Virus record (IMG/VR): IMGVR_UViG_3300009709_000001
Span: 317,336 to 381,335 of that record
Length of the DNA: 64,000 bases
Source: a virus
Taxonomy: Duplodnaviria; Heunggongvirae; Uroviricota; Caudoviricetes
Direction: 5' to 3' (one strand)
The position numbers and the translations under genes are program-made. A model generated the notes under the pieces. The model made no database searches. It was given only the letters and a program-made list of their open reading frames with translations, and had not been told where the DNA came from. Positions 239 through 50,188 of this stretch are shown one piece after another (positions within the stretch are counted from its first letter, which is position 1; each line of letters begins with the position of its first letter).

Positions 239-414
239 ACTCTAACTCCAAGCAAGTTGTGATCTGCAAGGCGAGGTCTCGTGTTACCTGAATTGAAAAC
301 TCCTCTGGGGCCAAGGATAAATCCTGTCGGAGTTTTACAATAGGAACACACCACCGGTCCCGATCTGGGGAGTGTCAGAGGCGCACCGCAAGGTTTGCAT
401 TCTTTTTGCATCAT
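235..414 (-). CDS. small zinc-ribbon protein (59 aa, below ORF-track cutoff)
   Basis: Hand translation of minus strand: MMQKECKPCGAPLTLPRSGPVVCSYCKTPTGF...; CxxC...CxxC; fills the 239-410 gap; ATGA overlaps with both neighbours. Confidence 0.55.
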   Translation of the reverse strand: MMQKECKPCGAPLTLPRSGPVVCSYCKTPTGFILGPRGVFNSGNTRPRLADHNLLGVRV

Positions 415-671
415 GATAGCAGATACCGGTGGAACTGATCTTGGTCTACTTCGTAGTCGTAGAGCAGCAGGAAATGTAGTTGATCTTCGGCGCGATCGAA
501 CACGAGCACTTTGTGATTATCGATGAGACGAACATTGTATTTTTTCAACACAGCCTCAACATTATCCCATCCATTTAGCCAATGAACGGTCATGAAGGTT
601 CTCCACCACCGTGGACATTCCCCTAATGAGTTGTCGCCAAGATAGAGAGTGTACCCGGGTGTCTTGGTCAT
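411..671 (-). CDS. hypothetical protein (86 aa)
   Basis: ORF 411..704 trimmed to the ATG at 669-671, which overlaps the stop of 668..946 (ATGA). Confidence 0.5.
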   Translation of the reverse strand: MTKTPGYTLYLGDNSLGECPRWWRTFMTVHWLNGWDNVEAVLKKYNVRLIDNHKVLVFDRAEDQLHFLLLYDYEVDQDQFHRYLLS

Positions 672-946
672 TCTTGTTCCTTGTAGGAGCCGTGCACCGG
701 ACACACATCGCCAAAATCTTCAAGGGAAAAATCTTCCCAGAATTTCGGATAATACCGGTCCTCTTCTGCAAGATAATACGTTCCGTATTTCTTAATCAGA
801 TCAAGATCGGTAATTTCTTTGTTGTGGAGCTTTACACAATCGGCAAGGTACTCGTTGTGCTTGGCAATGATCGGTGCTTGGGCCTTGGCCGCGGCCGCGC
901 GGGTCGCATCATCATAGCGGCGAGTTTTACCAAATCGTTTGGGCAT
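668..946 (-). CDS. hypothetical protein (92 aa)
   Basis: ORF track; co-directional array; no motif recognised. Confidence 0.5.
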   Translation of the reverse strand: MPKRFGKTRRYDDATRAAAAKAQAPIIAKHNEYLADCVKLHNKEITDLDLIKKYGTYYLAEEDRYYPKFWEDFSLEDFGDVCPVHGSYKEQE

Positions 947-6734: not shown

Positions 6735-7059
6735 ACTTCTTTCTCACTCCATCGGCAATTTGAGCAACCGTTATATTTACATCGATACGCTCAATGACAA
6801 TACGATTGCAGGCCAACTTCATCAGCAATGCTTCACCCGGATCCATCTTGGCATGATAGATGGTAACCAAGCCTTCGTTGCTTCTATTTGCTATGTTTTC
6901 GATGCCGACCTTATATGCATCTTGCACCGTTTGTATGCGATATGGAATGTTTCTTTGTGTAAGGTAAACACCTACATCAAAGCCGTCTGTCCATGGCTCC
7001 AGAATTTTGTAATTCAGAAGGGCCACAGGCTCCGGAAAAAGTTCTTCACGTTCAGCCAT
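6718..7059 (-). CDS. hypothetical protein (113 aa)
   Basis: ORF track; co-directional array. Confidence 0.5.
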   Translation of the reverse strand: MAEREELFPEPVALLNYKILEPWTDGFDVGVYLTQRNIPYRIQTVQDAYKVGIENIANRSNEGLVTIYHAKMDPGEALLMKLACNRIVIERIDVNITVAQIADGVRKKYVKTE

Positions 7060-14902: not shown

Positions 14903-15439
14903 TTACAAAGAATACAGCAATGCAGTGATTATAGCGGAATCTTTGGCTTTCTGCAAGTCTAACCAATATTTCTTCCAATATAAATCAACTTCTTCGGGAG
15001 TTTTGAATGGCCGTTGTTTATAGGTGGTATTTCTAAGAGCTTCAGCCCTTTTAGCAATATGCTCGGGTGTTTGTTTACGACCGCGATTAGCATTACCTAT
15101 CTTTTTCTTGTGTTGTTCGGATTTTGGCTTGTCTTTGTGAAGTTTTGAGATTTCTTCAGCCACACGATTTCTTAACCATCCGTACATTTTATTCCTTTTT
15201 ACTTTTCCATCTTTGGACATTCTAACCAATGCGAAAATAAGATATGGATGTTCCGGATATATACGAACTAATAACCTATGTGCAAGCCAATGTTCTTCGG
15301 CTGTTAGTTTAACGATATTTTCGGGATCATCTGTGCCACCTATGCATCGTGGAATTATATGATGCTTTTCGCAATATCCGATAATTTCACGTGATTTGGC
15401 ACATTCGATGAGTTTATTGTATGCTTCTTGATATTTCAT
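14903..15439 (-). CDS. HNH homing endonuclease (178 aa)
   Basis: HHIIPRCIGGTDDPENIVKLTAEEHWLAHRLL; N-terminus MKYQEAYNKLIE parallels MDYQKVYNNLIE of the 927 gene, so the start is set to ATG 15439 (track start 15472 is TTG). Confidence 0.8.
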   Translation of the reverse strand: MKYQEAYNKLIECAKSREIIGYCEKHHIIPRCIGGTDDPENIVKLTAEEHWLAHRLLVRIYPEHPYLIFALVRMSKDGKVKRNKMYGWLRNRVAEEISKLHKDKPKSEQHKKKIGNANRGRKQTPEHIAKRAEALRNTTYKQRPFKTPEEVDLYWKKYWLDLQKAKDSAIITALLYSL

Positions 15440-15501
15440 AACTTGAGATAATACCAGTGGATCTACATCCAAGCCGGCAATTTGGTAAATAATCAGTGCT
15501 C

Positions 15502-15696: not shown

Positions 15697-16305
15697 TTAG
15701 TCGGAATCCTTATTACTGGGTTCCCGAAGGCGTTGCCTGGGTACATTCACCACATGGATGAGATGCTCGGGCCAATCCACATAGTATGCCCATTCCGGTT
15801 CACGAATTTGAAGTGGCATCGTTTTCTTCTTTGCCAGTATCTCGTAGTAAGTCGGAACATGCGGCATCTTCTTAGGAACAATCTTTGCATTGTCGCCCTT
15901 GGTGCTGTTACAGTCCTTGCAAGCGGTGCAAATATTTTTCCAGTTGGATTTACCACCCATAGACGCAGGGACTACGTGGTCCAGCGTGAGCTCATTCACT
16001 TTGGCTTTTCCGCGGTTTTCCTTGCAATGCTTAGTGATTTGCAGCTGGCACGTGTAGTCGTCACGCAGGTAAATGTTGCCACGTGAATACTTCACCTTCT
16101 TATCCCATGAAACGTGCTTGACCATCATGACAATAGAAGGTACCTTGATCTCAAGCTTTTGAGACTTGATAACCCAGTCGTCGTATTCCTTAACAACCCT
16201 AACCTTACCATTATAGAGCATGTGCAATGCTCGTGCGGCAGGAATCACTGAGAAAGGACTCAGTGACATCGGTTGGCCGTCGGCATTAAGCAGTAATGTA
16301 TCCAT
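15697..16305 (-). CDS. HNH endonuclease (202 aa, McrA-like core)
   Basis: LTLDHVVPASMGGKSNWKNICTACKDCNSTKG. Confidence 0.75.
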   Translation of the reverse strand: MDTLLLNADGQPMSLSPFSVIPAARALHMLYNGKVRVVKEYDDWVIKSQKLEIKVPSIVMMVKHVSWDKKVKYSRGNIYLRDDYTCQLQITKHCKENRGKAKVNELTLDHVVPASMGGKSNWKNICTACKDCNSTKGDNAKIVPKKMPHVPTYYEILAKKKTMPLQIREPEWAYYVDWPEHLIHVVNVPRQRLREPSNKDSD

Positions 16306-16380: not shown

Positions 16381-16611
16381 TTATCCAATTAATTCAAGGT
16401 AGTCTTGAAATTCGGGCGGGAGTCCGCGTAGACGAAGAGCAACAGCATCTTCTTGTTTTTCGAAATCGACAGTCATGGCATTACGTTCGACTTTATAGAC
16501 GACTTGTTGCTCACAAATCTGATCTACCCAATCCTTGAAGAATAATTCAACTAATAATTTCTTATCAGTCTCGATATTCTCTTTAGTCTTGAATAGTATG
16601 GATGTTCGCAC
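16381..16611 (-). CDS. hypothetical protein (76 aa)
   Basis: ORF track (TTG at 16614); GTG at 16611 has AGGAG 7 nt upstream; FEKQEDAVALRLRG is a weak EEDA-helix match. Confidence 0.5.
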   Translation of the reverse strand: MRTSILFKTKENIETDKKLLVELFFKDWVDQICEQQVVYKVERNAMTVDFEKQEDAVALRLRGLPPEFQDYLELIG

Positions 16612-16643
16612 CAATAGTCTCCTATTGATGCTATTTATCCTTA

Positions 16644-17800: not shown

Positions 17801-18218
17801 TTTTATCCTTGCATTGAAGACCAGTGATATCCGGATACACCTTTACAAACTTGTCATCAGCAATATCACCGATAAACCAAGTATTGTTCGAAGTTTTGTA
17901 GAAGTTGATACCTTCAACAAAGTACCACCCGATCAACTTATCCGGCTCACTGGTATCGTTGAACAACAGGAAGAAGGCACGTTCACGTGCACCGTCAACA
18001 CAGACCTTGGACATACGTGCATACGGTCGCACCATTGCATCGAGCATTTGTTGCGTGGTAGGCTTTTCCACAGGTTCGGCTGCTGGTTGTTCAACTGCCG
18101 ATGCAGCAGCTTCTACCTTGGCCACTTCCTTAGGCTTATCATCAGAGCAGCCGCTCATAGCGGCAGTCACCAATGCAACATTGAGTGCGGTAAGGATGAT
18201 TGTTTTTAACGGCTTCAT
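17784..18218 (-). CDS. lipoprotein (144 aa)
   Basis: Trimmed to MKPLKTIILTALNVALVTAAMSGC (lipobox-like AMSGC). Confidence 0.6.
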   Translation of the reverse strand: MKPLKTIILTALNVALVTAAMSGCSDDKPKEVAKVEAAASAVEQPAAEPVEKPTTQQMLDAMVRPYARMSKVCVDGARERAFFLLFNDTSEPDKLIGWYFVEGINFYKTSNNTWFIGDIADDKFVKVYPDITGLQCKDKSVTTP

Positions 18219-18230
18219 ATATCTCGTAAG

Positions 18231-18252
18231 AATGGGGCATTTCTGCCCCATT
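18231..18252 (-). terminator. 9-bp hairpin after VWA gene (weak T tract)
   Basis: aatggggca-tttc-tgccccatt, 4 nt downstream of the stop of 18257..19456. Confidence 0.45.
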
Positions 18253-18256
18253 GTGT

Positions 18257-19456
18257 TTACCTATTGTTTTGGGGCGAATGGTTGTCCGGCTCGTACCAAG
18301 CAGTCATACCAAACGGTGCGACCAGCCGTCGTTGCGTATCGCCGTGGATGAGGAACAGAGTGTCGCAGTAATTCTCGTCACCCCAGCTACCGCAAGGATA
18401 GCCGTCAGTCATCACGATGAAGCGTTCCGGCATCACATCATTTTCCTTCATGTAATCCCAGTTCACTGTGAAGTCGGTACCGCCACCACCCTTCAGATCG
18501 TAGGTATCGATGTCATCGATATTTTCCGGCGTAAAGATCTGCGGGTTGTAAACGCGAGTGTCGAATGTCCAAACGGTAAGCTTGAAGTCCATGAACTGTT
18601 CCATGATGCCCTTGACTTCGCCGAGCAAGTCACGCAGCATGTCTTCAGACATAGAACCCGATGCGTCAATTGCCACAGCGGCCTCGACACGTACATCTTC
18701 CTTCGTACCCGGCAGGTAGATGCCGCTCGACTGAGACTTACGCGAGCAGCGACTCCAGGTGAAGTCATTGCGAATCATCGACTGAATCTTCATGTTCAGG
18801 ATTTCACGCCAATCCATCTGCGGATTGGTCAAATCCTTCAGCATGCGCTTCACACCTGCAGGCACATTGCCAGCGCCAGCTGCCTTCGAAGCTTGCATCA
18901 CGGCAGCACGGATCTCGTCGCCCAGGATACGGCGTTCTTCCTCTGTCATCGGCTCACCCTTGCCATCGCCTGGCTCCAAGTGGATGTCGAATTCGGGGAA
19001 CTTCTGGCTCGGGTCCTTCATTAGGGCTTCGTACACTTCTTCAGCGAACATACCCTTGAACTTGGGATCGAAGCAGGCAGTCACACCAGATGTCTTGGGG
19101 TCGGGGATCTTACCGACACTGTTCTCGTGGAGTTCCCAGTTGATGACGTAGTCGGCAGCAGCGTTCCAAGCCTTCGGCTTACGCGAACCACGACGACCCA
19201 TGTGGTCATAGACGCAGTGTTCCACTTCGTGCGCAACCAAGAAAATCGTTTCTTGTTTGTTCAACTTCAGAATGAAGTTGCGATTGAAGTAGAAACTGCG
19301 ACCATCGGTGGCAGCAGTGGGGCACCAGCCATCGGGATCGTCGGTAGCGTCCTTCAGAATCAAGCGAGTGGCCAACGTGCCCCAGAACGGCTGTTGCAGA
19401 AGAAGAGAGATGCGTGCTCGCGTCAGCTGTTCAAATGCTTTTTCCTGATCGGTCAT
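18257..19456 (-). CDS. VWA-domain protein with N-terminal HExxH metallopeptidase-like region (MoxR partner, CobT-like)
   Basis: AHEVEHCVYDH (HExxH) and MIDAS AIDASGSMS (DxSxS); GC-rich; own promoter and hairpin. Confidence 0.8.
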   Translation of the reverse strand: MTDQEKAFEQLTRARISLLLQQPFWGTLATRLILKDATDDPDGWCPTAATDGRSFYFNRNFILKLNKQETIFLVAHEVEHCVYDHMGRRGSRKPKAWNAAADYVINWELHENSVGKIPDPKTSGVTACFDPKFKGMFAEEVYEALMKDPSQKFPEFDIHLEPGDGKGEPMTEEERRILGDEIRAAVMQASKAAGAGNVPAGVKRMLKDLTNPQMDWREILNMKIQSMIRNDFTWSRCSRKSQSSGIYLPGTKEDVRVEAAVAIDASGSMSEDMLRDLLGEVKGIMEQFMDFKLTVWTFDTRVYNPQIFTPENIDDIDTYDLKGGGGTDFTVNWDYMKENDVMPERFIVMTDGYPCGSWGDENYCDTLFLIHGDTQRRLVAPFGMTAWYEPDNHSPQNNR

Positions 19457-19483
19457 AAATTTCCTTATTTGTTGCTTAATTAC

Positions 19484-19513
19484 ACTGTAGCATCACCATT
19501 GACGGACTGTCAA
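19484..19513 (-). promoter_or_regulatory. sigma70-type promoter TTGACA-18-TACAGT
   Basis: Minus strand cccTTTGACAgtccgtcaatggtgatgcTACAGTgtaat; AAGGA before ATG 19456. Confidence 0.6.
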
Positions 19514-19731
19514 AGGGTAGCAAACTTGAGTGCGAAGAGTGTGGCTGTCTCTTCATTCTCAAACTCAATATATGGTGTCCCAAAATGGTCAATCATTCCG
19601 TACTCTGCCTTCATTTTTCTCCAGAACTCCTTAACCTCTTCAGAATCAATATCACCATTGGTTCCATAGATGCTGACATAGTTATTCCAGGCTTTGCCAA
19701 ATTGACCTTCGTATACATTCACGAGATGCAT
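19510..19731 (-). CDS. EEDA-helix small protein family member (73 aa)
   Basis: C-terminus YIEFENEETATLFALKFATL. Confidence 0.6.
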   Translation of the reverse strand: MHLVNVYEGQFGKAWNNYVSIYGTNGDIDSEEVKEFWRKMKAEYGMIDHFGTPYIEFENEETATLFALKFATL

Positions 19732-19741
19732 TTTATTCTTA

Positions 19742-19963
19742 TTATGTCCATTTTAGGAGGAAGATTGTTACATCCTCCTCGGTTTCAAATTCGAGTTTAT
19801 GTCGATCAACAACTCTGATACATTTGATGTCTCTGAATGCTCGTTCAAGGCCTCCTTTGCCATCGAATTGAACTTGATCGACAAAGTTAGACCATGCGTT
19901 ATTATTCTTTTCGGAGGCCTTGGGACCGGTAACAGTTAGGTATCGAGACATTATACTGACCAC
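19742..19963 (-). CDS. EEDA-helix small protein family member (73 aa)
   Basis: C-terminus LEFETEEDVTIFLLKWT. Confidence 0.6.
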   Translation of the reverse strand: MVSIMSRYLTVTGPKASEKNNNAWSNFVDQVQFDGKGGLERAFRDIKCIRVVDRHKLEFETEEDVTIFLLKWT

Positions 19964-20169
19964 CTCAGAAGAAATGCAGTTGCATCCTCATCTTCTTCAA
20001 ATTCAATATATGGTGTGTCCCACAAATTATGTCCACCGAATTTTGCCAACTCTTCGAAGATGTCGTAGTAGGGTGTCGGACTATTTTCCGAAATATAATC
20101 ACGAAATCTTAACCATTCGGTTCGGTGTAAACCACCATTGACTATATCTAATCTTGTTGTCATGCCCAT
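19951..20169 (-). CDS. EEDA-helix small protein family member (72 aa)
   Basis: C-terminus YIEFEEDEDATAFLLRWSV. Confidence 0.6.
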   Translation of the reverse strand: MGMTTRLDIVNGGLHRTEWLRFRDYISENSPTPYYDIFEELAKFGGHNLWDTPYIEFEEDEDATAFLLRWSV

Positions 20170-20357
20170 CTGAGCTTGAAGATCAATTCCTGTTCTTCAG
20201 ACTGGAACGGAATTTTTAGCCAATTAATATTCGTACCTAGGTTGAATTGTCGACCTTGATCAACTAACCAGGCCTCGTATTCAAGGCCAGTACCGCCAAT
20301 ATACTTACGAAAATAATCATAAGCATTTTCGAAATAGGGTTGTATCGGGAGTGCCAT
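20160..20357 (-). CDS. EEDA-helix small protein family member (65 aa)
   Basis: C-terminus IPFQSEEQELIFKLRWA. Confidence 0.6.
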   Translation of the reverse strand: MALPIQPYFENAYDYFRKYIGGTGLEYEAWLVDQGRQFNLGTNINWLKIPFQSEEQELIFKLRWA

Positions 20358-20418
20358 AATTTATATCATATATTTTAACAAAATTAGTTATAGTCTGCAA
20401 GATATAAACATAAATACT

Positions 20419-21405
20419 ATGGTAAATGTATTCTATAAGGAATTTCTAAAGATGAAGACACACAAATGCGAAAATATGACTTGCCAGAATAAATCCGAAA
20501 AGGATAAGTACGGCAATTATAAAAGATACTGCTCGGATGAATGCAAAAAGGTATCGAGATTATTAAAATTCAAAGAAACATATCAACATAAAGATATGGG
20601 TGCAATATTACAAAAACGAAAAGATACATTATTGTCTAAGTATGGTGTCGAGAACGCAGCATGTATATCTGAGGTCAAAGAAAAACTGCGTATAACCACT
20701 ACTAATACCGCGCAAATCCGCACAATAAAAACTAAAGAGACAAACTTAGCACGTTACGGCGTTGAGAGTACAAATTCCCTTGAGTCTGTTCAAGAGAAGA
20801 AAAAGCAAACCTTACTTGAAAGGTACGGCGTAGATCATCAACTTAAAATACCAGGAGTAGCTGCCGAAGTTTCGAAGAAGAATTCGGAAAATGCTAAGGA
20901 GCGACTAGTAAAGTCGAAGAAGACCAATCTTGAAAGATATGGATGTGAAAATCCATCTGCAAACGAAGATATCAAACTCAAAAGAACTGCAACTATGATT
21001 GAACGGTTCGGTGTAGAGAATGCATCGCAGAATGCTAAGGTTCAGTCGAAAAAAGTCAGGGCCGGCTTTAAGACTAAAAAATATACTTTCCCGTCCGGAA
21101 GAATAGACCATGTCCAAGGATATGAACCTTTGGCACTCAGTCAACTTTTACAGGAGGGATATCAAGAAAATGACATTATTACGCTTGATGAATTGATGCC
21201 GGAACTATGGTATCATGAATCGGATGGATCTAAGCGCAGATATTTCCCAGATATTTATATCCCGAAAGAAAATCTATTAATCGAAGTTAAATCCGAATAT
21301 ACTTATCGCGGATTTATTGGTTGGCTAATAACCAACCAATTAAAAGAGCAATGTGCCAGAGATGCTGGATTTAATTATCGACTAATGATAATGGTAAAGA
21401 AATAA
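20419..21405 (+). CDS. repeat-rich PD-(D/E)xK-like homing endonuclease candidate (328 aa)
   Basis: Five ~35-aa modules (KYGVENAAC, RYGVESTNS, RYGVDHQLK, RYGCENPSA, RFGVENASQ); C-terminal YFPDIYIPKENLLIEVKSEYT (D...ExK); AT-rich, antisense to the gene array; alternative start at 20452. Confidence 0.55.
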   Translation: MVNVFYKEFLKMKTHKCENMTCQNKSEKDKYGNYKRYCSDECKKVSRLLKFKETYQHKDMGAILQKRKDTLLSKYGVENAACISEVKEKLRITTTNTAQIRTIKTKETNLARYGVESTNSLESVQEKKKQTLLERYGVDHQLKIPGVAAEVSKKNSENAKERLVKSKKTNLERYGCENPSANEDIKLKRTATMIERFGVENASQNAKVQSKKVRAGFKTKKYTFPSGRIDHVQGYEPLALSQLLQEGYQENDIITLDELMPELWYHESDGSKRRYFPDIYIPKENLLIEVKSEYTYRGFIGWLITNQLKEQCARDAGFNYRLMIMVKK

Positions 21406-21432
21406 AAAAGCCCGGTTTAACCGGGCTTTTTG
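21405..21432. terminator. bidirectional rho-independent terminator
   Basis: aaaaagcccgg-tttaa-ccgggcttttt between convergent genes 20419..21405 (+) and 21484..22710 (-). Confidence 0.8.
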
Positions 21433-21483
21433 TTGATAACTTACTTTGCAAAGGCGTTGTAAGTCATTGATTTTAAAGGATTT

Positions 21484-22710
21484 TCAGTCCTCGAGGATGA
21501 ACTTGCCGTACTTGTCGTGGAACGACTTGAACTGCTTCAGCTCACGGTGGTTGATCGGCAACGAATAGTCCCGCAGCGCGGTCTTGGCTCCCAGAACGAT
21601 CATCTCAGTCTGGAAGTTGTCCATCATGAACTTGAAGAAGTGGTCCACGCACTCGTGCCATTGCTTCATGTCGAAGCCGTCGCCATCGCCCTTGCCGTTG
21701 TTCTGCTTGGCCTTCAGCGACCATTCCTGCAGCGTGTAGCAGAGGCTGATGGTCAGCGAGTACATGGCAGACAGGTCCTTGACGTTCAGCGTCTTTTCCT
21801 TGCCCATCAGCACGTCTTCCGACTTCGGCATCTTCGCCGCAACGCGACGGTGTGCAGTGAACTCGGTAGCGTTGCCTTCACCGACGGTACCTGCCACGAG
21901 GGAGGTGTTCATCGATTCCGGCAGGCTGTCGCTGATCAGCTGGGACACGAAAGTCCAGGAACGCGGCGTAGCGAACGCCTTGTCCGGCGACTTCGGATCG
22001 AAGTCGAACAGCTTCTGCTTGTGGTGCGACAGGAAGCCCACAACGTCCGGGTGAACCTTGGCGCCGATCGCCCACTTCTGCCAGTCTTCGAAGTTCGAAG
22101 TCATCTCGATGTGAACCAGACGGTTTGCCAGCGGGCTGGGCATACGGTAGGTCACGCCCTTGTCGCTGTCGCGGTTACCAGCGCACAGCATGGACACGCC
22201 ATCGGGCAGGTGGTATTCGCCGACACGACGGTTCAGGATGAGCTGGTAAGCAGCAGCCTGCACGCTCGGAGGAGCAGCGTTGATTTCGTCCAGGAACAGG
22301 ATCGCGTTGCTCATGTCGTAAGCGGCGCGGATCGACAGGGCGTATTCGCGAGCAGTTTCAGCTTCTTCGCTGACGTCCTTCTCGTCGAACTTGGCCGCAG
22401 CGGCCTCTGCCTTCTCGACGTCCTTCTTCTTGATGGACTTCGGCAGGTCGGCAGGATGTGCCCACTTCATGGTCTTGGTCTCGACGTCGAAGTAGGGGAT
22501 GCCCTTGATGTCAGTCGGTTCGAGCAGCAGCAAGCGCATGTCGATCACCTTGCGACCGGCCTTTGCGCCGATTTCAGCGATCAGTTCCGATTTGCCAATG
22601 CCCGGGGGACCCCAGATCATTGCGGGGCGGCGCACTTCCATGCAGCGCTCCAGAAGAGTCTTGACGTCCTTCGGACGTTCTTGACGGGAAGTAGAATGAT
22701 TTGCAGCCAT
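21484..22710 (-). CDS. MoxR-type AAA+ ATPase (CobS-like, 408 aa)
   Basis: Walker A GPPGIGKS, Walker B ILFLDEINAA; GC-rich; own promoter and terminator. Confidence 0.85.
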   Translation of the reverse strand: MAANHSTSRQERPKDVKTLLERCMEVRRPAMIWGPPGIGKSELIAEIGAKAGRKVIDMRLLLLEPTDIKGIPYFDVETKTMKWAHPADLPKSIKKKDVEKAEAAAAKFDEKDVSEEAETAREYALSIRAAYDMSNAILFLDEINAAPPSVQAAAYQLILNRRVGEYHLPDGVSMLCAGNRDSDKGVTYRMPSPLANRLVHIEMTSNFEDWQKWAIGAKVHPDVVGFLSHHKQKLFDFDPKSPDKAFATPRSWTFVSQLISDSLPESMNTSLVAGTVGEGNATEFTAHRRVAAKMPKSEDVLMGKEKTLNVKDLSAMYSLTISLCYTLQEWSLKAKQNNGKGDGDGFDMKQWHECVDHFFKFMMDNFQTEMIVLGAKTALRDYSLPINHRELKQFKSFHDKYGKFILED

Positions 22711-22751
22711 GTGTTCTCCAGTTGGCGGGGTTAAAATTGCGTTGTGTCTGT

Positions 22752-22780
22752 ATTATGTCTGCATGCAACGAATGAGTCAA
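22752..22780 (-). promoter_or_regulatory. sigma70-type promoter TTGACT-17-CATAAT
   Basis: Minus strand gccgtTTGACTcattcgttgcatgcagaCATAATacag; ~40-nt leader with GGAGA before ATG 22710. Confidence 0.7.
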
Positions 22781-22806
22781 ACGGCAAATGCAGGTACTTG
22801 GGGAAA

Positions 22807-23478
22807 TTAAGAATAATGACCACCTTTTAGGATTTTCATAATTCGAATTTGGTCTGCTTCGTATTTGGCCTGTGCAGCCTCGAAGTCTTCATCGGCCCAT
22901 TGTTGGGCAAGGCTGGGCCAATCTTCCAAAAAGATAATTACATCCCAGCCCCATTCTTCGTTACCACCTCCCCCACTGGAAGTTTTAATTCCAACAAAGT
23001 TGAGGAGATTACTCATCGGGTAAGAACCAAAATTGGTAGTACGGCTTAGGGAACCTCGACAATAACCAGTCCACCCGGGATAACCGGTAGGTTTGTTCTT
23101 ATCTTGAGCACACCAATTCATGAGTCCCCAATCAGGACGTACATGAGAATTTGATGCATGCTTAAATGATGACATATCGAGCTTGATATTTGATATGTCA
23201 TCATTTGCGTGGAAAAAGTCTCCCCACTTGCCAGCCCTAATTGTATTACACCAATCCATAAGTTGTTTCTGGTGCTTTTGAATCCAGGGGCAGATTTCAT
23301 GAAGGTAACTTACTTCTTTCTTCAGTTCGCGAAGTTCCTTCAGAATGTTCGATACAGTCTTTTCGTACCTTGCTTGTGCTACCCGTTTCTTACGGAGTTC
23401 AAGAAGGTGTTCACCATATTCAGCTCTATCTGTGAATATAGAACCAGTGAAAGGACATTTATTAACGATGATTCTCAT
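22807..23478 (-). CDS. hypothetical protein (223 aa)
   Basis: ORF track; no motif recognised. Confidence 0.55.
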   Translation of the reverse strand: MRIIVNKCPFTGSIFTDRAEYGEHLLELRKKRVAQARYEKTVSNILKELRELKKEVSYLHEICPWIQKHQKQLMDWCNTIRAGKWGDFFHANDDISNIKLDMSSFKHASNSHVRPDWGLMNWCAQDKNKPTGYPGWTGYCRGSLSRTTNFGSYPMSNLLNFVGIKTSSGGGGNEEWGWDVIIFLEDWPSLAQQWADEDFEAAQAKYEADQIRIMKILKGGHYS

Positions 23479-23749
23479 ATTTCAATTTAAAAATCGTTGC
23501 ATGTTCTTCATGAAGAAAATAGAATGAGAATTCGTATCTCCAGACTACATCTTTTGACCAACACCAATCGTCACCAAACTGCTCGTCACAATAGTCGAAT
23601 ATTTCATTAAATTTTAGTCCCGGGACATTGTCAAAAGAGACTTTTGTCCAATCTTGCACCTTTTCTTGCCAATTGTCGGATGTAAGTTCGAATTTAGCAA
23701 CCTTCCGAGCAAGGCTCAGGGCCTTAATATCGGCCATCGTATAACTCAT
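23462..23749 (-). CDS. EEDA-helix small protein family member (95 aa)
   Basis: C-terminus FYFLHEEHATIFKLKYENHR. Confidence 0.55.
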   Translation of the reverse strand: MSYTMADIKALSLARKVAKFELTSDNWQEKVQDWTKVSFDNVPGLKFNEIFDYCDEQFGDDWCWSKDVVWRYEFSFYFLHEEHATIFKLKYENHR

Positions 23750-24087
23750 TTAACCTTCCCGGCTAAGACTTCCCACATCAACTTAGCTTCGGCCTCTTCG
23801 ATAAACGAGGGCCAGATCTCTAAAAGCTTTTCAGGCGAAATTTTGACATAGCCCTTGCGTAGTTTGCTCTCACGCAGCTTGTTTAGGTCATGACCCGTAA
23901 TATCCGCCTTAAACTGCATGGCTTTGCCCCTGCGTCCCCAGAATATGCAGCAGTTATAGCCCCAGTCTTTAGTAGTCCATGCAGCCGCATCGGGTGTGGG
24001 GCGCAAGAAGTAACCCCAGATCTTGTCCGAATTTCCCTCTTGGCACCAACCAATAAACACAAATTCTGTAGTCATAGTGTTATTCAA
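23746..24087 (-). CDS. WGR-domain protein (113 aa)
   Basis: NSDKIWGYF ... FWGRRGKAMQFK ... KLRKGYVKI matches the WGR pattern (recalled from PARP/MolR-type proteins). Confidence 0.6.
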   Translation of the reverse strand: MNNTMTTEFVFIGWCQEGNSDKIWGYFLRPTPDAAAWTTKDWGYNCCIFWGRRGKAMQFKADITGHDLNKLRESKLRKGYVKISPEKLLEIWPSFIEEAEAKLMWEVLAGKVK

Positions 24088-24128
24088 TAGTCATAAGATA
24101 AATATAGTTTAGCAGGAGAATAGAAATT

Positions 24129-24881
24129 ATGCAAGAATTTAAACCAACATGGTTATACATAAAGAAACACAATATCACTGGTTTACAATATTTCGGTAAA
24201 ACAAATAGATATCATCCCGAGAAATATATAGGGTCTGGAAAATACTGGCTAGCGCATTTAAGGGTGCATGGAAAAGATATATCAACAACATGGTGTGAAC
24301 TATTCTTCGACCAGCAAACATTGGTAGAATATGCGCTTAAATTTTCAAAAGAAAATAATATAGCCGAATCAAGTGAATGGGCCAATCTTAAGTTTGAAAA
24401 CGGTCTTGATGGAGGTCACAGTGGCGTGGCAAGGAGCGATGAGACAAAGGAAAAATTATCTAAGAAAAATAGAGGAAAACGACATACAAAGGAAACCAAA
24501 AATAAAATTTCAGATTCCAATAAAGGTAAACATAACATGGTAAGACCTGCAGATGTCGGAGCCAAAATTTCGAAAGCACTGACCGGTAAAAAACGAGGTC
24601 CAATGCCAGATGAAACAAAAAGAAAAATTGGTGATGCAAATAAAGGAAAACCTTCATCAAAGAAGGGTATACCAATGCCAGATGAAACAAAAAGAAAAAT
24701 TGGTGATGCAAATAAAGGAAAACCTTCATCAAAGAAGGGTATACCTAGGTCAGCTATTGATAAAGATAAAATCAGAAAAGGCCAAGAAAATGTACCCGAA
24801 ATAACTTGCCCACACTGTCATATTTCAAATAAACCCGGATGTATGAAAAGATGGCACTTTGATAATTGTAAAAAGAAATAA
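24129..24881 (+). CDS. GIY-YIG-type (Seg-like) homing endonuclease (250 aa)
   Basis: WLYIKKHNITGLQYFGKTN; NUMOD3-like repeats (RSDETKEKLS, HTKETKNKIS, PMPDETKRKIG x2); C-terminal CPHC...KRWHFDNC zinc finger; AGGAGA RBS. Confidence 0.75.
   Translation: MQEFKPTWLYIKKHNITGLQYFGKTNRYHPEKYIGSGKYWLAHLRVHGKDISTTWCELFFDQQTLVEYALKFSKENNIAESSEWANLKFENGLDGGHSGVARSDETKEKLSKKNRGKRHTKETKNKISDSNKGKHNMVRPADVGAKISKALTGKKRGPMPDETKRKIGDANKGKPSSKKGIPMPDETKRKIGDANKGKPSSKKGIPRSAIDKDKIRKGQENVPEITCPHCHISNKPGCMKRWHFDNCKKK
24600..24744. repeat. perfect 72-bp tandem duplication (2 copies) inside the endonuclease gene
   Basis: caatgccagatgaaacaaaaagaaaaattggtgatgcaaataaaggaaaaccttcatcaaagaagggtatac at 24601-24672 and 24673-24744; duplicates 24 aa PMPDETKRKIGDANKGKPSSKKGI. 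Confidence 0.95.
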
Positions 24882-25583: not shown

Positions 25584-25613
25584 ATTATAGGGCCACCAGG
25601 GCCCTATAGTCAA
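25584..25613 (-). promoter_or_regulatory. sigma70-type promoter TTGACT-18-TATAAT whose spacer is a 9-bp hairpin
   Basis: Minus strand cagTTGACTatagggccctggtggcccTATAATgcatttg; tatagggcc/ggccctata stem spans the spacer and -10. Confidence 0.65.
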
Positions 25614-25641
25614 CTGAGTTTTACGTCAATTGGAACTGGTT

Positions 25642-26820
25642 TTACCAGTCGCTGCTGCCGGAATCGCTGCTGGAGCTGCTGCCGGAGTCGGACGAACCCC
25701 AGCTGCTGCCGCTGTCGCTGCTCGAACTGGACCAGCTGCTGGAACGGCTGCTGCTGTCGTCATCGTCACGGCTGGACGAATAGCTCGGAGCAGGGGCCGG
25801 CGCGTAGTACGGTGCAGGGGCGGGAGCCGGTTCCGGGGCAGAGCTGGAGCTGAACTCGGAAGTACCACCCCACTCGGCGTCGTCCTTGGCCGAGCTGCTG
25901 AAGGTCGGTGCAGGTGCCGTGATCACGGGCGGGGTGTACGTCGAAGCACTCGAACTGTAGTCACTGGTGCCCGAGGATTCCTCGCGGCGTCGACGAGTCA
26001 CAGTGTCATCATCATGACGATGACGGAGCGCATCGCTGATCATGTTGCCAGCAACCACACCACCTGCCACTGCCACACCCGTTTCCAGAGCCGACGGACC
26101 GGTATGGACCACGGTCGGAGGAACATAGGTGGGTGCCGGAGGAGCCGTATAGGTGCGCGACGGACGGGACCATGCAGCCGGGCTCGGTGCCGGAGGCGTC
26201 GAATAGGTGCTGCGAGTGGTACCCATACCGCTACTGGCCGTGGTCACAGAGGAGGGAGCCGAGGTAGCGGTTGCAGTCACAGGACTGGAGAAGTCGACGC
26301 CACCGTCTTCAGACTTGGTCCGGCGATACCAGTAGTAGCCCAGGCCACCCAGCGTGAACAGGAACAGCAGAACCAGGAACTTGGAACCGAACGAGCTGCC
26401 TTCATCGGCCGGCTTCGTTACCGCCACGGGTTGTGCCTGCACTTGAGGTGCAGCTTGGACGACCACGGGAGGAGGGGGCGGCACATAGGCCTGGACCACC
26501 GGCTGACGGGCGCCGGCGATGTCGCGTTCCATCTTGGCGAACAGGCGCGAACCGAGCACGTCACCCTTGTGATCGTATGCGCGGACGGCGTCCAGTTCAC
26601 GCTGGGCGAGATTGGGGTCTCGTTCCAGACACATGATCGTTGCCGCATTCAGCAGGTGAGCGCGAGCGCTATCCGGGCGCGACACCAGGATCTCATTCAC
26701 GTAATTGCGCGCTTGGGCGCAGTTGCCGTTTTCCAGGGCGGATTCGACCTGCTTCGGACTGGGGAGGGCCATTGCGGTCGCAGACAGCAAGGCAAGGGAA
26801 AGGGACAGAATACGCTTCAT
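25642..26820 (-). CDS. signal peptide + helical-repeat (TPR-like) domain + TM + Ser/Pro/Thr-rich tail (392 aa), GC-rich
   Basis: MKRILSLSLALLSATAMA; TM FLVLLFLFTLGGLGYYWY; tail ends SSSSDSGSSDW; AAGGAG 6 nt before ATG. Confidence 0.65.
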   Translation of the reverse strand: MKRILSLSLALLSATAMALPSPKQVESALENGNCAQARNYVNEILVSRPDSARAHLLNAATIMCLERDPNLAQRELDAVRAYDHKGDVLGSRLFAKMERDIAGARQPVVQAYVPPPPPVVVQAAPQVQAQPVAVTKPADEGSSFGSKFLVLLFLFTLGGLGYYWYRRTKSEDGGVDFSSPVTATATSAPSSVTTASSGMGTTRSTYSTPPAPSPAAWSRPSRTYTAPPAPTYVPPTVVHTGPSALETGVAVAGGVVAGNMISDALRHRHDDDTVTRRRREESSGTSDYSSSASTYTPPVITAPAPTFSSSAKDDAEWGGTSEFSSSSAPEPAPAPAPYYAPAPAPSYSSSRDDDDSSSRSSSWSSSSSDSGSSWGSSDSGSSSSSDSGSSDW

Positions 26821-26838
26821 GTGTAGCTCCTTGGGGGT

Positions 26839-26865
26839 GAAAACTGGGGCCCCGAAGGGCCCCAG
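26839..26865 (-). terminator. rho-independent terminator
   Basis: Minus strand ctggggccc-ttcg-gggccccag followed by ttttc, 3 nt after the stop of 26869..27966. Confidence 0.8.
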
Positions 26866-26868
26866 GGG

Positions 26869-27966
26869 TCAGATTGCAGCCATCCAGTCGTAGTTGGCGC
26901 GGCCGTACACCTCACGGGTGAACACCACGACCGTCTGCGCCGGCGTACCTTCGTCGACCACGTAAGTGAACGTACCCGCTTCCGGTTCGATGCGCTTCAG
27001 GTGCTTCGGATTCAGCTCCAGGGTGAAGCTGTCGTCCTTGTCTTCCGGGCAGCCGGCCGACTCGCCAACGCTGATGTTCAGCTCTTCGCTGGCCACCGGG
27101 CTTCCGCGCCACGTGTCGGGGTAGATGCGGTTGGTGTCGATCGCCTTGCCTTCGCGGATGATGCTGACCTTGTGGCGCATGCTGCTGTCGGCGAACGGTT
27201 TCGCGTTGAGCAGTTCCAGCACTTGGTGCGGCGTCTCGTTGTAGCGGTTCATGTCTTCGACCAGCGCCTTCAGCATGTCGAAGTTGAAGCTTTCGTACAG
27301 CATGGCCAGACGGCAGATCGTCGGGATGTGCGTCTTGTCGTTGAGGCGATCGTTGCAGTATTCTTCGATGAACGCTGCGTCGATGCCCTTGTACTCCAGG
27401 CAGTAGAAGACACGACCCGGCCGATTGCGCATGTGGCTGTTGACGCGGTACTTGTCGTTGCAGGTCAGGATGAACAGCTTCTTGCTCGGGAACACGCCGT
27501 CGAGCAGGGTCAGGATAGCTTCCTGTTCCTTTTCGCCGAACACCTTCTCGAACTCGTCGAACACGACCACGCACGGCTGGTTGATGTTCTGAATGAAGGC
27601 GTTGAAGCCGTCACCGCAGAAGTCGCTGTTGATGACCAGGACGGGCATGTTGTGCGCTTCAACCGCGTTCTTGGCGATGAGCTTGGCCAACATCGTCTTG
27701 CCCGAACCCTTTTCGCCGGTCAGCAGCACACCAGTGCTGTTCGGGCGATCGAGGAAGGTGCTCATGATGCGATCAGCACGGCCGTGGATGTTGCCGTAGA
27801 TCTTGCCGTCGATGTTGAAGTTGTTGATGGGCTTCAAGAAGAAGCCTCGGCCCGGCATTGCACCGACCGTGTACGTGCCCGGGGGCAGCGTCTCGTGCAT
27901 GTCGAGCGCCGCTTTCGGGGTGGGGAAAAACAAGCCGCCTTCGCGGGAGAAAATGGTGCTACTCAT
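26869..27966 (-). CDS. AAA+ ATPase (365 aa), GC-rich
   Basis: Walker A LLTGEKGSGKT, Walker B VVVFDEFEK. Confidence 0.8.
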   Translation of the reverse strand: MSSTIFSREGGLFFPTPKAALDMHETLPPGTYTVGAMPGRGFFLKPINNFNIDGKIYGNIHGRADRIMSTFLDRPNSTGVLLTGEKGSGKTMLAKLIAKNAVEAHNMPVLVINSDFCGDGFNAFIQNINQPCVVVFDEFEKVFGEKEQEAILTLLDGVFPSKKLFILTCNDKYRVNSHMRNRPGRVFYCLEYKGIDAAFIEEYCNDRLNDKTHIPTICRLAMLYESFNFDMLKALVEDMNRYNETPHQVLELLNAKPFADSSMRHKVSIIREGKAIDTNRIYPDTWRGSPVASEELNISVGESAGCPEDKDDSFTLELNPKHLKRIEPEAGTFTYVVDEGTPAQTVVVFTREVYGRANYDWMAAI

Positions 27967-28021
27967 CGCTTCTTTCTTGGTTGCGGGATAAATCCCTGGT
28001 TAAATTTGTTTAACAGTCTCT

Positions 28022-28364: not shown

Positions 28365-29192
28365 ATGAATACTCCATTTCTAAATAACAAATATACTGCC
28401 CGATATTATAAAATTATTAATACCGTTTTAGAATTAAATCGAAAGAAATTAAAAAGAAATAACCCTGATTACAGGTATTATGAATTGCATCATATTATTC
28501 CCAAATCATTAGGTGGTGACAATTCTTCTGCAAATCTTATACCTTTGACACCAAGGGAACATTATATATGCCACCTTTTACTCACCCGAATGACTGAAGG
28601 TAAAAATAGATATAAGATGCTCTGTGCATTCAACAGAATAACAAATAGAGGCCAGGCAGAAATTAAAAATTCTAGATTATATAATTCTATTCGAGAAGAC
28701 TTTTCGAAATCGCAGGCCGAAAATTATAAAGGTGATAAAAATCATTTTTATGGAAAGACTCACACAAAAGAAATCAGAGATTATTTAGCTGAGGTATGTC
28801 CACGATTCGGTAAAGATAATGGCAATTTTGGTAAATCATTATCTCAATCACAAAAAGATGCAATTTCGAAAAGTAATAAATCCAGAAAAATTATACCTCC
28901 ACCTCCGCAACTCGGTTCAAAAAATCATTTTTCTAAGATTTATAAAATAATCGACCCAACCGGTAATAAATTTACAATAAAATGCATGAGTGAATTTTGT
29001 GAAAGAAACAATCTTTGTAGTCGAACAATGATTTTATTTAAGGACAAAGGAAAAATTCCTGAATTGCAATTCGAACGAGAATATCGTGTAAAGAATCTCC
29101 AAGCAAAGAAGAACTGTGAAGGTTATTCTATTATTTCAATGACCTCGCCCCTTGGTCCTTTTCCATCAATCGACCATACAGTTACCGGATAA
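28365..29192 (+). CDS. HNH homing endonuclease (275 aa)
   Basis: LHHIIPKSLGGDNSSANLIPLTPREHYICHLLL; a 70-nt sample at the 5' end is 23% G+C by hand count; 3' end overlaps the macro-domain gene by 70 nt (convergent). Confidence 0.8.
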   Translation: MNTPFLNNKYTARYYKIINTVLELNRKKLKRNNPDYRYYELHHIIPKSLGGDNSSANLIPLTPREHYICHLLLTRMTEGKNRYKMLCAFNRITNRGQAEIKNSRLYNSIREDFSKSQAENYKGDKNHFYGKTHTKEIRDYLAEVCPRFGKDNGNFGKSLSQSQKDAISKSNKSRKIIPPPPQLGSKNHFSKIYKIIDPTGNKFTIKCMSEFCERNNLCSRTMILFKDKGKIPELQFEREYRVKNLQAKKNCEGYSIISMTSPLGPFPSIDHTVTG

Positions 29193-29626
29193 GTAACTGT
29201 TTCTTCAATAATGCTCTTAATTATATTCCACGAACCTCCGCCGAGGCCAGCACCAATAAACGGAATATGAATTTCCTTGGGTTGAAGATCTGCCATGCTT
29301 TCGAAGCCAGCATTTAGGTAATCCTCAACTTGTTGAAAACAAGTCTGAACTGCGTCATAACTTGTATGACGACCTGGACCACCAAACCCGTCTTGTGTCA
29401 CGGCATTCCAAATCTTGAGATTGATCGTTGCCAGAGATGGATATGCATTACCGAGTTTAAGCTTACCGGCTTCATATAGCTCACGGTAATCAAGATACAC
29501 ACTCGGATAAAGATTCTTGACTCCGAGCGCAACACCCGAACCCATCACACCTTGTGCGTTACAACCATGGACAATATGTCCGGCTGTGACATTGAACAAA
29601 TTACCGGTTTTGACTTGGATCTTCAT
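29123..29626 (-). CDS. macro-domain protein (ADP-ribose binding/hydrolase type, 167 aa)
   Basis: GHIVHGCNAQGVMGSGVALGVK and FIGAGLGGG. Confidence 0.8.
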   Translation of the reverse strand: MKIQVKTGNLFNVTAGHIVHGCNAQGVMGSGVALGVKNLYPSVYLDYRELYEAGKLKLGNAYPSLATINLKIWNAVTQDGFGGPGRHTSYDAVQTCFQQVEDYLNAGFESMADLQPKEIHIPFIGAGLGGGSWNIIKSIIEETVTYPVTVWSIDGKGPRGEVIEIIE

Positions 29627-49629: not shown

Positions 49630-49913
49630 TATTCCTCCTTGCCAGCTGCCGGTCCATTAACCAGTGCTAGAATAGTTTGATATGCATCATATGCTTCCTT
49701 GAGTGCTGGATATTTCTCATGTAACTCAAGGTGCGGATGTAGAATTAGAAGCCGTGTCTCAATATTGCTGAGGCGTGCTTCTATTTGTGCAAGATTTTCT
49801 TGCGTCTTATCGGTTGTCGTTGTCCAATAAGCGGTTGTGCCTGTGCTGCCGCTCATCAGAACATTGCCAAGTGCACCGTAATTTGTCGGAAGTATTGAAT
49901 TTGTTGTACTCAT
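49629..49913 (-). CDS. hypothetical protein (94 aa)
   Basis: ORF track; 1-nt and 4-nt overlaps. Confidence 0.55.
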   Translation of the reverse strand: MSTTNSILPTNYGALGNVLMSGSTGTTAYWTTTTDKTQENLAQIEARLSNIETRLLILHPHLELHEKYPALKEAYDAYQTILALVNGPAAGKEE

Positions 49914-50188
49914 TTTGAAAACCTTATTTTGAAAACTAATGCATCTTCAGGATTTTCAAAGCCCACGAAGACTATTACATTTCCGTGATTGCTGAGCACT
50001 TTCACATCTGCTGACCCCGACGTATTATCGTGGAGCCAGTAGAGCAATTCTAAATACATTTCCTGCTGATACGGAAACTTGATTATAGTTCTGAATTTTT
50101 CGTCGAAGTTAACCACTAATGGTTCCGGCTCCAGACTTACTGTCGGTTGCTTCCGGAACATATTCCAAAGTTGCGCCATTTTCCCCAT
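49910..50188 (-). CDS. EEDA-helix small protein family member (92 aa)
   Basis: C-terminus VFVGFENPEDALVFKIRFSK; start uncertain (overlaps the QueD-like 3' end). Confidence 0.55.
   Translation of the reverse strand: MGKMAQLWNMFRKQPTVSLEPEPLVVNFDEKFRTIIKFPYQQEMYLELLYWLHDNTSGSADVKVLSNHGNVIVFVGFENPEDALVFKIRFSK

Follow-up and report, generated by a model that had tools for sequence, protein, structure and literature searches.

The window analysed here is a stretch of 64,000 nucleotides (positions 317,336 to 381,335) of the IMG/VR virus record IMGVR_UViG_3300009709_000001, a member of the Caudoviricetes, and belongs to a JGI metagenome contig of 385,394 bp; the element under study is a tandem array of four small genes together with its dispersed relatives in the same DNA. 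The four genes, here called A to D, lie head to tail on the minus strand, span 20357-19510 and are transcribed in the order D, C, B, A (Table 1). A preliminary description had reported four tandem open reading frames (ORFs) with particular C-termini at this place, and these were present exactly so, with the common tail pattern F-E-x-E-E-D-A-x-x-F-x-L-[KR]-[WF]. The proposal that the four genes are paralogues was borne out. When their proteins were compared by BLASTP with the 468 window ORFs of 40 amino acids (aa) or more, the pairwise E values were 1.5e-5 for A-C, 3e-4 for B-C, 0.026 for A-B, and 0.065 for B-D. A hidden Markov model (HMM) of the four genes picked up the dispersed genes F (49910, E=0.0013) and E (23462, E=0.0093), while the best of 2808 control sequences, all reversed or shuffled, reached 0.033. 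As an independent membership test, an HMM of 134 members, all from outside the window, was run on the window ORFs and the controls (hereafter the external HMM), and it recovered eight window members, namely A to D and the dispersed genes E, F, G, and H, with the best control at E=0.036.

The dispersed members differ in how firmly they belong. Genes E and F, already named as additional copies in the preliminary description, were both upheld by the external HMM (E=2e-4 across residues 29-94 and E=6.5e-6, respectively), and gene E also matched a member of the L009 array (see below) by BLASTP at E=8.6e-8. Gene G (411-704) had been overlooked and is a member by the profile of the main-group alignment A3 introduced below (E=2.1e-5 across residues 19-80) as well as by the external HMM (E=7.6e-9). 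Five weaker matches had been listed too, of which the one at 16381 (gene H) stands, if weakly: it is borderline, with E=3.4e-4 by the external HMM (against 0.036 for the best control) and 0.058 by the four-gene HMM. The other four, at 7014, 7887, 8331, and 28057, were rejected as members, as they never rose above shuffled controls with the four-gene, motif-only, 38-sequence, or external profiles. The motif-only HMM, covering 20 residues and aimed at rescuing these weaker candidates, returned six clear copies and nothing more. Overall, the window members are 65-97 aa long, and the motif ends 0-4 residues before the stop in A to F and 14-17 residues before it in H and G.

Several gene starts deserve comment. 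Gene C likely begins at the ATG at 20163 (70 aa) rather than at 20169, as indicated by the junction sequence and the JGI call P0005 (which begins MTTRL), and gene B likely begins at the ATG at 19951 (69 aa) rather than at the GTG at 19963, as indicated by its own junction sequence and the JGI call P0004 (which begins MSRYL). For gene D, an identical protein was called in the JGI and Logan assemblies (P0001). The public call for gene F (P0002; 68 aa, GTG start) is probably too short; the homologues P0022 and P0037 share the N-terminal MGKMAQLWNxFRK of the 92-aa ORF (ERLWNMFRK in P0037).

Table 1. Family genes, gene junctions, and upstream region in the window, and arrays on related contigs (E values are those of the external HMM)
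Feature	Position	Strand	Description
Gene D	20160..20357	(-)	65 aa; first gene of the array; tail IPFQSEEQELIFKLRWA; E=5.9e-6
Gene C	19951..20169	(-)	72 aa from 20169; tail YIEFEEDEDATAFLLRWSV; E=3.3e-19
Gene B	19742..19963	(-)	73 aa from GTG at 19963; tail LEFETEEDVTIFLLKWT; E=1.1e-14
Gene A	19510..19731	(-)	73 aa; last gene of the array; tail YIEFENEETATLFALKFATL; E=6e-15
Gene E	23462..23749	(-)	95 aa; dispersed, divergent; longer N-terminal part; tail FYFLHEEHATIFKLKYENHR
Gene F	49910..50188	(-)	92 aa; dispersed; distinct subgroup FDKKYKTII...FVGFENxDDALVFKIKYS; E=6.5e-6
Gene G	411..704	(-)	97 aa; full domain (WWRTF ... LKKYNVRLIDNHKVLVFDRAEDQLHFLL) and 17-residue C-terminal extension
Gene H	16381..16614	(-)	77 aa; TTG start uncertain; motif MTVDFEKQEDAVALRLR, then 14-residue extension
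D/C junction	20160..20171	(-)	AGATGGGCATGA; R-W-A-stop codons of D hold a weak AGATGG of Shine-Dalgarno type and the ATGA in which stop and start overlap
C/B junction	19949..19965	(-)	AGGTGGTCAGTATAATG; R-W codons of C are AGGTGG, 8 nt before the ATG of B
Divergent intergenic region	20358..20418	(-)	AT-rich, upstream of D
L009			8.7-kb contig; 10 significant and 3 degenerate copies in 13 consecutive small ORFs, just upstream of a DUF2201 gene
L007			7.6-kb contig; 11 members
L011			364,576-bp contig; at least 17 significant members, of which 16 fall inside 5.7 kb
L014			3.6-kb contig; 12 members
L139			561-kb IMG/VR genome (UViG); 8 copies in 2.8 kb
L157			77.7-kb IMG/VR contig; 6 members

Having delimited the family in the window, we then explored its extent elsewhere. 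An exhaustive HMMER search with six window proteins as a profile against 1.84 billion representative proteins gave 52 matches at E<=1e-3, including 46 further small proteins; save for one spurious match, these are 65-106 aa long with alignments that reach the C-terminus, and the members are stand-alone proteins without fusions. By comparison, a word-indexed protein search with the same six proteins returned only themselves and two strain variants. The relatives split into a main group (alignment A3; M-x-Y-[KR]-L-x-V ... W-x-N-F ... L-x-x-Y-N-A-x-N-V ... Y-I-E-F-E-T-E-E-D-A-x-x-F-K-L-R-W-S) and an F-like group (alignment A4) with the pattern given for gene F in Table 1, and a profile-profile comparison with hhalign related the two at 96% probability and E=2e-9, with an alignment confined to the final 23 columns. 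The preliminary description had named the lack of a significant profile-profile relationship among the members as grounds for rejection, and this result goes against it. When A3 was used for a second search, further members turned up on contigs of 52-365 kb, every one of these proteins named "hypothetical protein" or nameless. The family is acidic, with a median isoelectric point (pI) of 4.7 and net charges down to -8.

Curated resources and public phage genomes returned nothing that would identify these proteins. Scans of the window proteins and 38 members against Pfam-A, PHROGs v4, and NCBIfam 20 gave no consistent match; the family profile found nothing significant among all PDB sequences (nucleolin, E=7.6); tblastn of protein C and a consensus-like member against 50,697 GenBank phage records yielded nothing relevant; megablast of window positions 18000-24500 against GenBank phages gave no nucleotide match; and a literature search found no description of a W-x-N-F ... 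E-E-D-A small-protein family. The best structural matches, at TM-scores of 0.66-0.71, were three proteins of 65-84 aa and 20-26% identity in BFVD/UniProt (A0A6J7WGC4, A0A6J5KWS6, and A0A6J7WPL8, all "uncultured Caudovirales phage"), which probably belong to the same family; they are unannotated and have no published analysis, and so add no functional information. Judged by these searches, the small-protein family is previously unnamed, with neither a curated family nor a solved structure.

The predicted structures point to one common domain. In the AlphaFold2 model of protein C, built on a 38-sequence alignment (mean predicted local distance difference test score, pLDDT, 92.4; predicted template modelling score, pTM, 0.79), a strand at 5-8 is followed by helices at 16-29 and 33-42, strands at 46-48 and 54-57, and a helix at 60-70. 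The model of protein F (pLDDT 80) has the same order of elements, with strand 34-39, helix 42-55, strands 60-67 and 70-77, and helix 80-90, after a low-confidence, flexible N-terminal tail, which supports the shared fold that had been suggested from the sequences. Each protein is thus predicted to fold as one compact, acidic domain, about 70 residues long, in the order strand1-helix1-helix1'-strand2-strand3-helix2, and the modelled fold is a two-layer alpha/beta sandwich of the ferredoxin/RRM (RNA recognition motif) type minus the final strand. Ferredoxin-like sandwiches (RRM, ACT, KH-like, and designed "ferredoxin" domains) share the strand-helix-strand-strand-helix order; in contrast to them, the family lacks the final strand, has helix 1 split in two, carries an acidic surface, and shows no significant sequence match. 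The resemblance is to a very common fold and implies no shared function.

Conservation was mapped on the model of C from 146 distinct sequences, and the most conserved positions were F57 (99%), F66 (99%), L68 (92%), D62 (91%), and W19 (90%), followed by E61 (82%), E60 (81%), and A63 (79%); position 70 is aromatic (W/F/Y) in 98% of sequences, and position 59 holds T, N, or S in 81%, in keeping with a helix cap. Placed on the structure, the F (99%) and I of the tail lie on strand 3, the E-E-D (81-91%) starts the last helix as its first turn, and the A, F, L, and W/F/Y make up the buried face of that helix. Because conservation maps to strand 3, the cap, and the last helix, the tail is best read as the core of the fold with an acidic knob and not as a separable docking tag. 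The earlier idea of a docking helix on a variable head was therefore not sustained, as the tail is strand 3, the N-cap, and the buried last-helix face of one compact 70-residue domain. The companion statement that the N-terminal halves are divergent holds only in part: the wider family has a conserved N-terminal strand (Y-K/R-L-x-V) and a conserved W-x-N-F helix start, whose W, N, and F are conserved at 90%, 73%, and 70%; the profile alignment covers the full length of A, B, and C. Variable or indel-rich residues fall at 8-18, 23-36, and 50-53, that is, in the strand1-helix1 loop, the helix1-helix1' region, and the strand2-strand3 hairpin, and the exposed positions of the sheet are mostly polar or acidic.

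The ends of the genes carry a second layer of information. The ATG of B (19951) overlaps the TAA of C as TAATG, and the ATG of C (20163) overlaps the stop of D as ATGA. In relatives (L007, L009, L011, and L014), L-R-W-S-stop is mostly written TTG AGG TGG TCA TGA, and copies are often joined by ATGA. The tail Arg is AGG in 13 of 18 cases, whereas five large window genes use AGG for 3 of their 132 Arg codons, and the tail Ser is TCA in 12 of 13. The AGGTGG in the tail codons may act as a Shine-Dalgarno-like site for the next copy, and there may be a DNA-level constraint on the last three or four residues, which would leave the rest of the motif unexplained. Such a dual-coded tail is of interest as a compact case of protein sequence and translation signals on the same bases. 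The divergent region upstream of D is presumed to be the start of a D-C-B-A(-DUF2201) transcription unit; no strong sigma-70 match was found in it, and across 18000-24500 the sigma-70 promoters and terminators counted by a scan did not outnumber those in shuffled sequence. Taken together, A to D are predicted to be functional, co-transcribed, and partly translationally coupled.

Relatives on other contigs form longer runs (Table 1), and the contigs that host them are phage, up to 561 kb in length and several of 355-371 kb; the other large UViGs with members measure 184-561 kb. The family was found only in environmental large or jumbo phages, where amplification has produced tandem arrays with 2 to at least 17 (up to about 20) diverged copies. 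Among 118 bacterial and archaeal genome loci with a degenerate FETEEDAxxF DNA pattern, none encodes a member, while 10 of the 31 viral loci newly fetched through the scan for this pattern do. The family, its fold, and its phage-restricted array structure, as described here, are considered very likely.

We then evaluated selection and the age of the duplications, using as reference a related strain (ENA ERZ27252311) in which A and E are 90-91% identical in nucleotides. The ratio of nonsynonymous to synonymous substitution rates (dN/dS), available for the family from only two orthologue pairs, was 0.20 for A (versus contig L001, where its orthologue P0003 has 86% protein identity) and 0.14 for gene E (versus contig L003), compared to 0.04 for the DUF2201 gene and 0.09-0.11 for two neighbouring genes; A and E are under purifying selection. 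Each of A to D is nearest to proteins of other phages (36-42% identity), and among neighbours the identity to C is 21-26%. As the paralogues are nearer to proteins of other phages, their duplications predate the divergence of these phages. The preliminary description had called the family rapidly diversifying, and the available data do not bear this out: both the low dN/dS and the old duplications suggest an array that is old and constrained.

Around the array, the genes of an AAA+ (MoxR/CobS-like) ATPase (21484-22710) and a DUF2201 metallopeptidase/VWA protein (18257-19456) stand on either side, with gene A 53 nt upstream of the latter and a plus-strand DUF7487 gene (20419-21405, E=7e-56) inserted between the ATPase gene and the array. 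The convergent DUF7487 and ATPase genes share a hairpin with a perfect 12-bp stem at 21405-21431 (AAAAAGCCCGGTTAAACCGGGCTTTTT), which would act as a strong bidirectional terminator. The ATPase shares 48.5% identity with its counterpart in PA5oct-like Pseudomonas jumbo phages. More broadly, the neighbours of the family's arrays are genes of replication and nucleotide metabolism (DNA polymerase B, RNase H, AAA ATPases, and RNA ligase), and the surroundings in the window are rich in accessory genes, among them a Macro-domain gene and several endonuclease genes of the HNH and GIY-YIG types.

What these proteins do can be approached through what they carry and what they lack. No catalytic or known-family signature was found, the median pI is low, the genes stand alone, and the region is accessory-rich, all of which is consistent with binders or inhibitors. 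We infer a binder role from the lack of catalytic signatures and of fusions, combined with a constant scaffold and conserved acidic patch bearing variable loops; that the proteins are binders or antagonists of host factors is a tentative reading, to which we assign somewhat less than an even chance. A role in host takeover or anti-defence, as the preliminary description had proposed, is our best guess, as it would agree with proteins that are small and acidic, lack catalytic motifs, occur in many copies, and are restricted to phages. We hypothesize that the proteins act as non-enzymatic binders, in which the constant scaffold and acidic patch would carry paralogue-specific surfaces, and that each copy may bind and neutralise a different host protein in the service of host takeover or counter-defence, or as an antitoxin-like factor. 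Overall, the best explanation, which we consider about evenly poised, is a phage-specific paralogous family of small acidic domains in arrays that bind host proteins. A more specific version, which we regard as unlikely, is a hard-wired binder repertoire, in which one robust 70-residue scaffold occurs in up to about 20 copies per genome, each of them tuned to neutralise another host defence or housekeeping protein, and the last codons carry the ribosome-binding site and start of the next copy, so that the copies would be duplicable, translationally coupled cassettes.

Known systems offer partial parallels. T7 Gp2, T4 Dmd, PBS2 Ugi, and the anti-CRISPRs are small acidic single-domain phage inhibitors that are typically encoded in single copy. 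The family resembles them in being 60-100 aa long, acidic, and alpha/beta, with no catalytic motif and in stand-alone accessory genes, and differs from them in its arrays of 4-20 paralogues and in having no Pfam or PHROGs match. Large DNA viruses have tandem multigene families, and diversified immunity proteins form arrays beside polymorphic toxins, with each copy handling a different target; many diverged paralogues of one small domain, placed head to tail in accessory regions, are the common feature, whereas sequences and hosts are unrelated, so that the analogy serves as a lead. Several points weigh against host binding by the array. Old paralogues with a dN/dS well below 1 do not show the arms-race signature frequent in counter-defence genes; the conserved E-E-D could be a purely structural helix N-terminus, as in RRMs; the sequence and fold searches made here gave no similarity to known anti-defence or takeover proteins; and the case for a host-binding role appears, on our analysis, to be circumstantial.

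Other functions were weighed on the same evidence. The proteins could serve the flanking AAA+ ATPase/DUF2201 pair as accessory subunits, adaptors, or substrates, given that the window array lies between these two genes, that the L009 array ends just before a DUF2201 gene, and that the array on a 109.6-kb ENA contig begins just after an AAA_5-type ATPase. PA5oct-like phages, however, keep the pair without any family member, and in PA5oct unrelated small ORFs and a homing endonuclease fill the interval from the AAA ATPase gene to the putative DUF2201 gene instead; moreover, the flanks read of L011, L007, and a 52-kb contig contain no CobS-like AAA/DUF2201 pair, L007 having only a different, nSTAND3-type AAA gene. 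Given the content of the PA5oct interval and the arrays far from such a pair, the interval looks like a site of plastic accessory content, with the adjacency a matter of inherited synteny, and not like a functional operon with the ATPase, and we consider a partnership with the pair improbable. Large phages often carry paralogous small internal proteins, and this would favour a family of virion-associated (internal head, ejection, or decoration) proteins in many paralogous forms, as would a rank-50 BFVD match to an internal head protein that is not significant (E=3.1). Against such a role, the arrays lie among replication and nucleotide-metabolism genes and not in structural modules, no prohead-protease-type cleavage motif or targeting sequence was noticed, and no structural similarity to known virion proteins was seen, which leaves it with a very small share of the probability.

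A different possibility, raised by the fold, is that the proteins are small RRM-like RNA-binding regulators, e.g., translational repressors, and that their signature is homologous to strand 3-helix 2 of the RRM. The topology and the aromatic strand followed by an E-D-A helix start do recall RRMs, in that the RRM F-V-x-F-x-x-x-E-D-A and the family tail both place a buried strand-3 aromatic before an acidic helix start, and there were weak single matches to RRM_1 (E=0.042, 1 of 38 members) and xRRM (E=0.022, gene H). None of these lies above the Pfam gathering threshold (RRM_1, PF00076), though, no window protein matches RRM_1, and the profile found nothing significant among PDB sequences, nucleolin included. 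The b1-a1-b2-b3-a2-b4 sheet of an RRM is not formed, since the models are three-stranded and end in helix 2 with no residues left for a fourth strand; in addition, the proteins are acidic, and their exposed sheet is mostly polar or acidic where an aromatic/basic one would be expected of an RRM. RNA binding of this kind is accordingly judged a slim prospect. Slimmer still, and largely refuted, is the view that the tail is a nucleotide-level element (a ribosome-binding or coupling cassette, a recombination site, or a promoter) or a product of chance. The last four codons are strikingly fixed in relatives, but the roughly 13 conserved residues upstream vary freely at synonymous sites: among 32 members, Ala is encoded by GCT (8), GCA (6), GCC (4), and GCG (4), Glu by GAA and GAG, Asp by GAT and GAC, and Leu by five codons. 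On this variation a purely nucleotide-level tail was rejected, and further evidence against it comes from homology that spans all 70 residues, from the confident fold, and from the low dN/dS, so that DNA constraint accounts at most for the R-W-S-stop end, as dual coding; chance is excluded by the reversed and shuffled controls. The probability that remains beyond these readings is left to other functions.

In large viruses, small accessory proteins that form tandem families are already familiar, and nothing mechanistically new is demonstrated here. Nevertheless, the family takes up several kilobases in some phage contigs and is spread over many metagenomes, and its copy numbers, confidently predicted fold, and dual-coded junctions recommend it for experiments, in which the small size of the proteins would be an advantage. 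Should the copies turn out to be inhibitors with specific targets, the arrays would amount to a catalogue of host antagonists from uncultivated jumbo phages; if not, this would be an ordinary family of hypothetical phage proteins.

Some features of the wider region are recorded here in their own right. Directly upstream of gene E, a 113-aa ORF (23746-24087, minus strand) has a "WGYF ... FWGRRG" pattern that recalls WGR domains; a Pfam scan of it gave no match at E<=1e-3. A 250-aa NUMOD3-containing homing-endonuclease-like gene (24129-24881, plus strand) is absent from a related strain (contig L003), in which the interval between two aligned blocks measures 89 nt compared to 847 nt in the window, a presence/absence polymorphism of a mobile gene. 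Three HNH-endonuclease genes lie within 15 kb (14903-15472; 15697-16305, minus strand; and 28365-29192, plus strand), and with the NUMOD3 and DUF7487 genes counted in, the density of homing-endonuclease-like genes is unusually high. From about 25600 to 28000 there is a GC-rich island (GC 0.61 versus about 0.42 in the rest of the window), which holds a 392-aa ORF without Pfam match and a 365-aa AAA/nSTAND3-like ATPase and may be a foreign acquisition. Finally, a 167-aa Macro-domain protein (PF01661, E=6e-6) is encoded at 29123-29626 on the minus strand and is a candidate ADP-ribose-removing enzyme.

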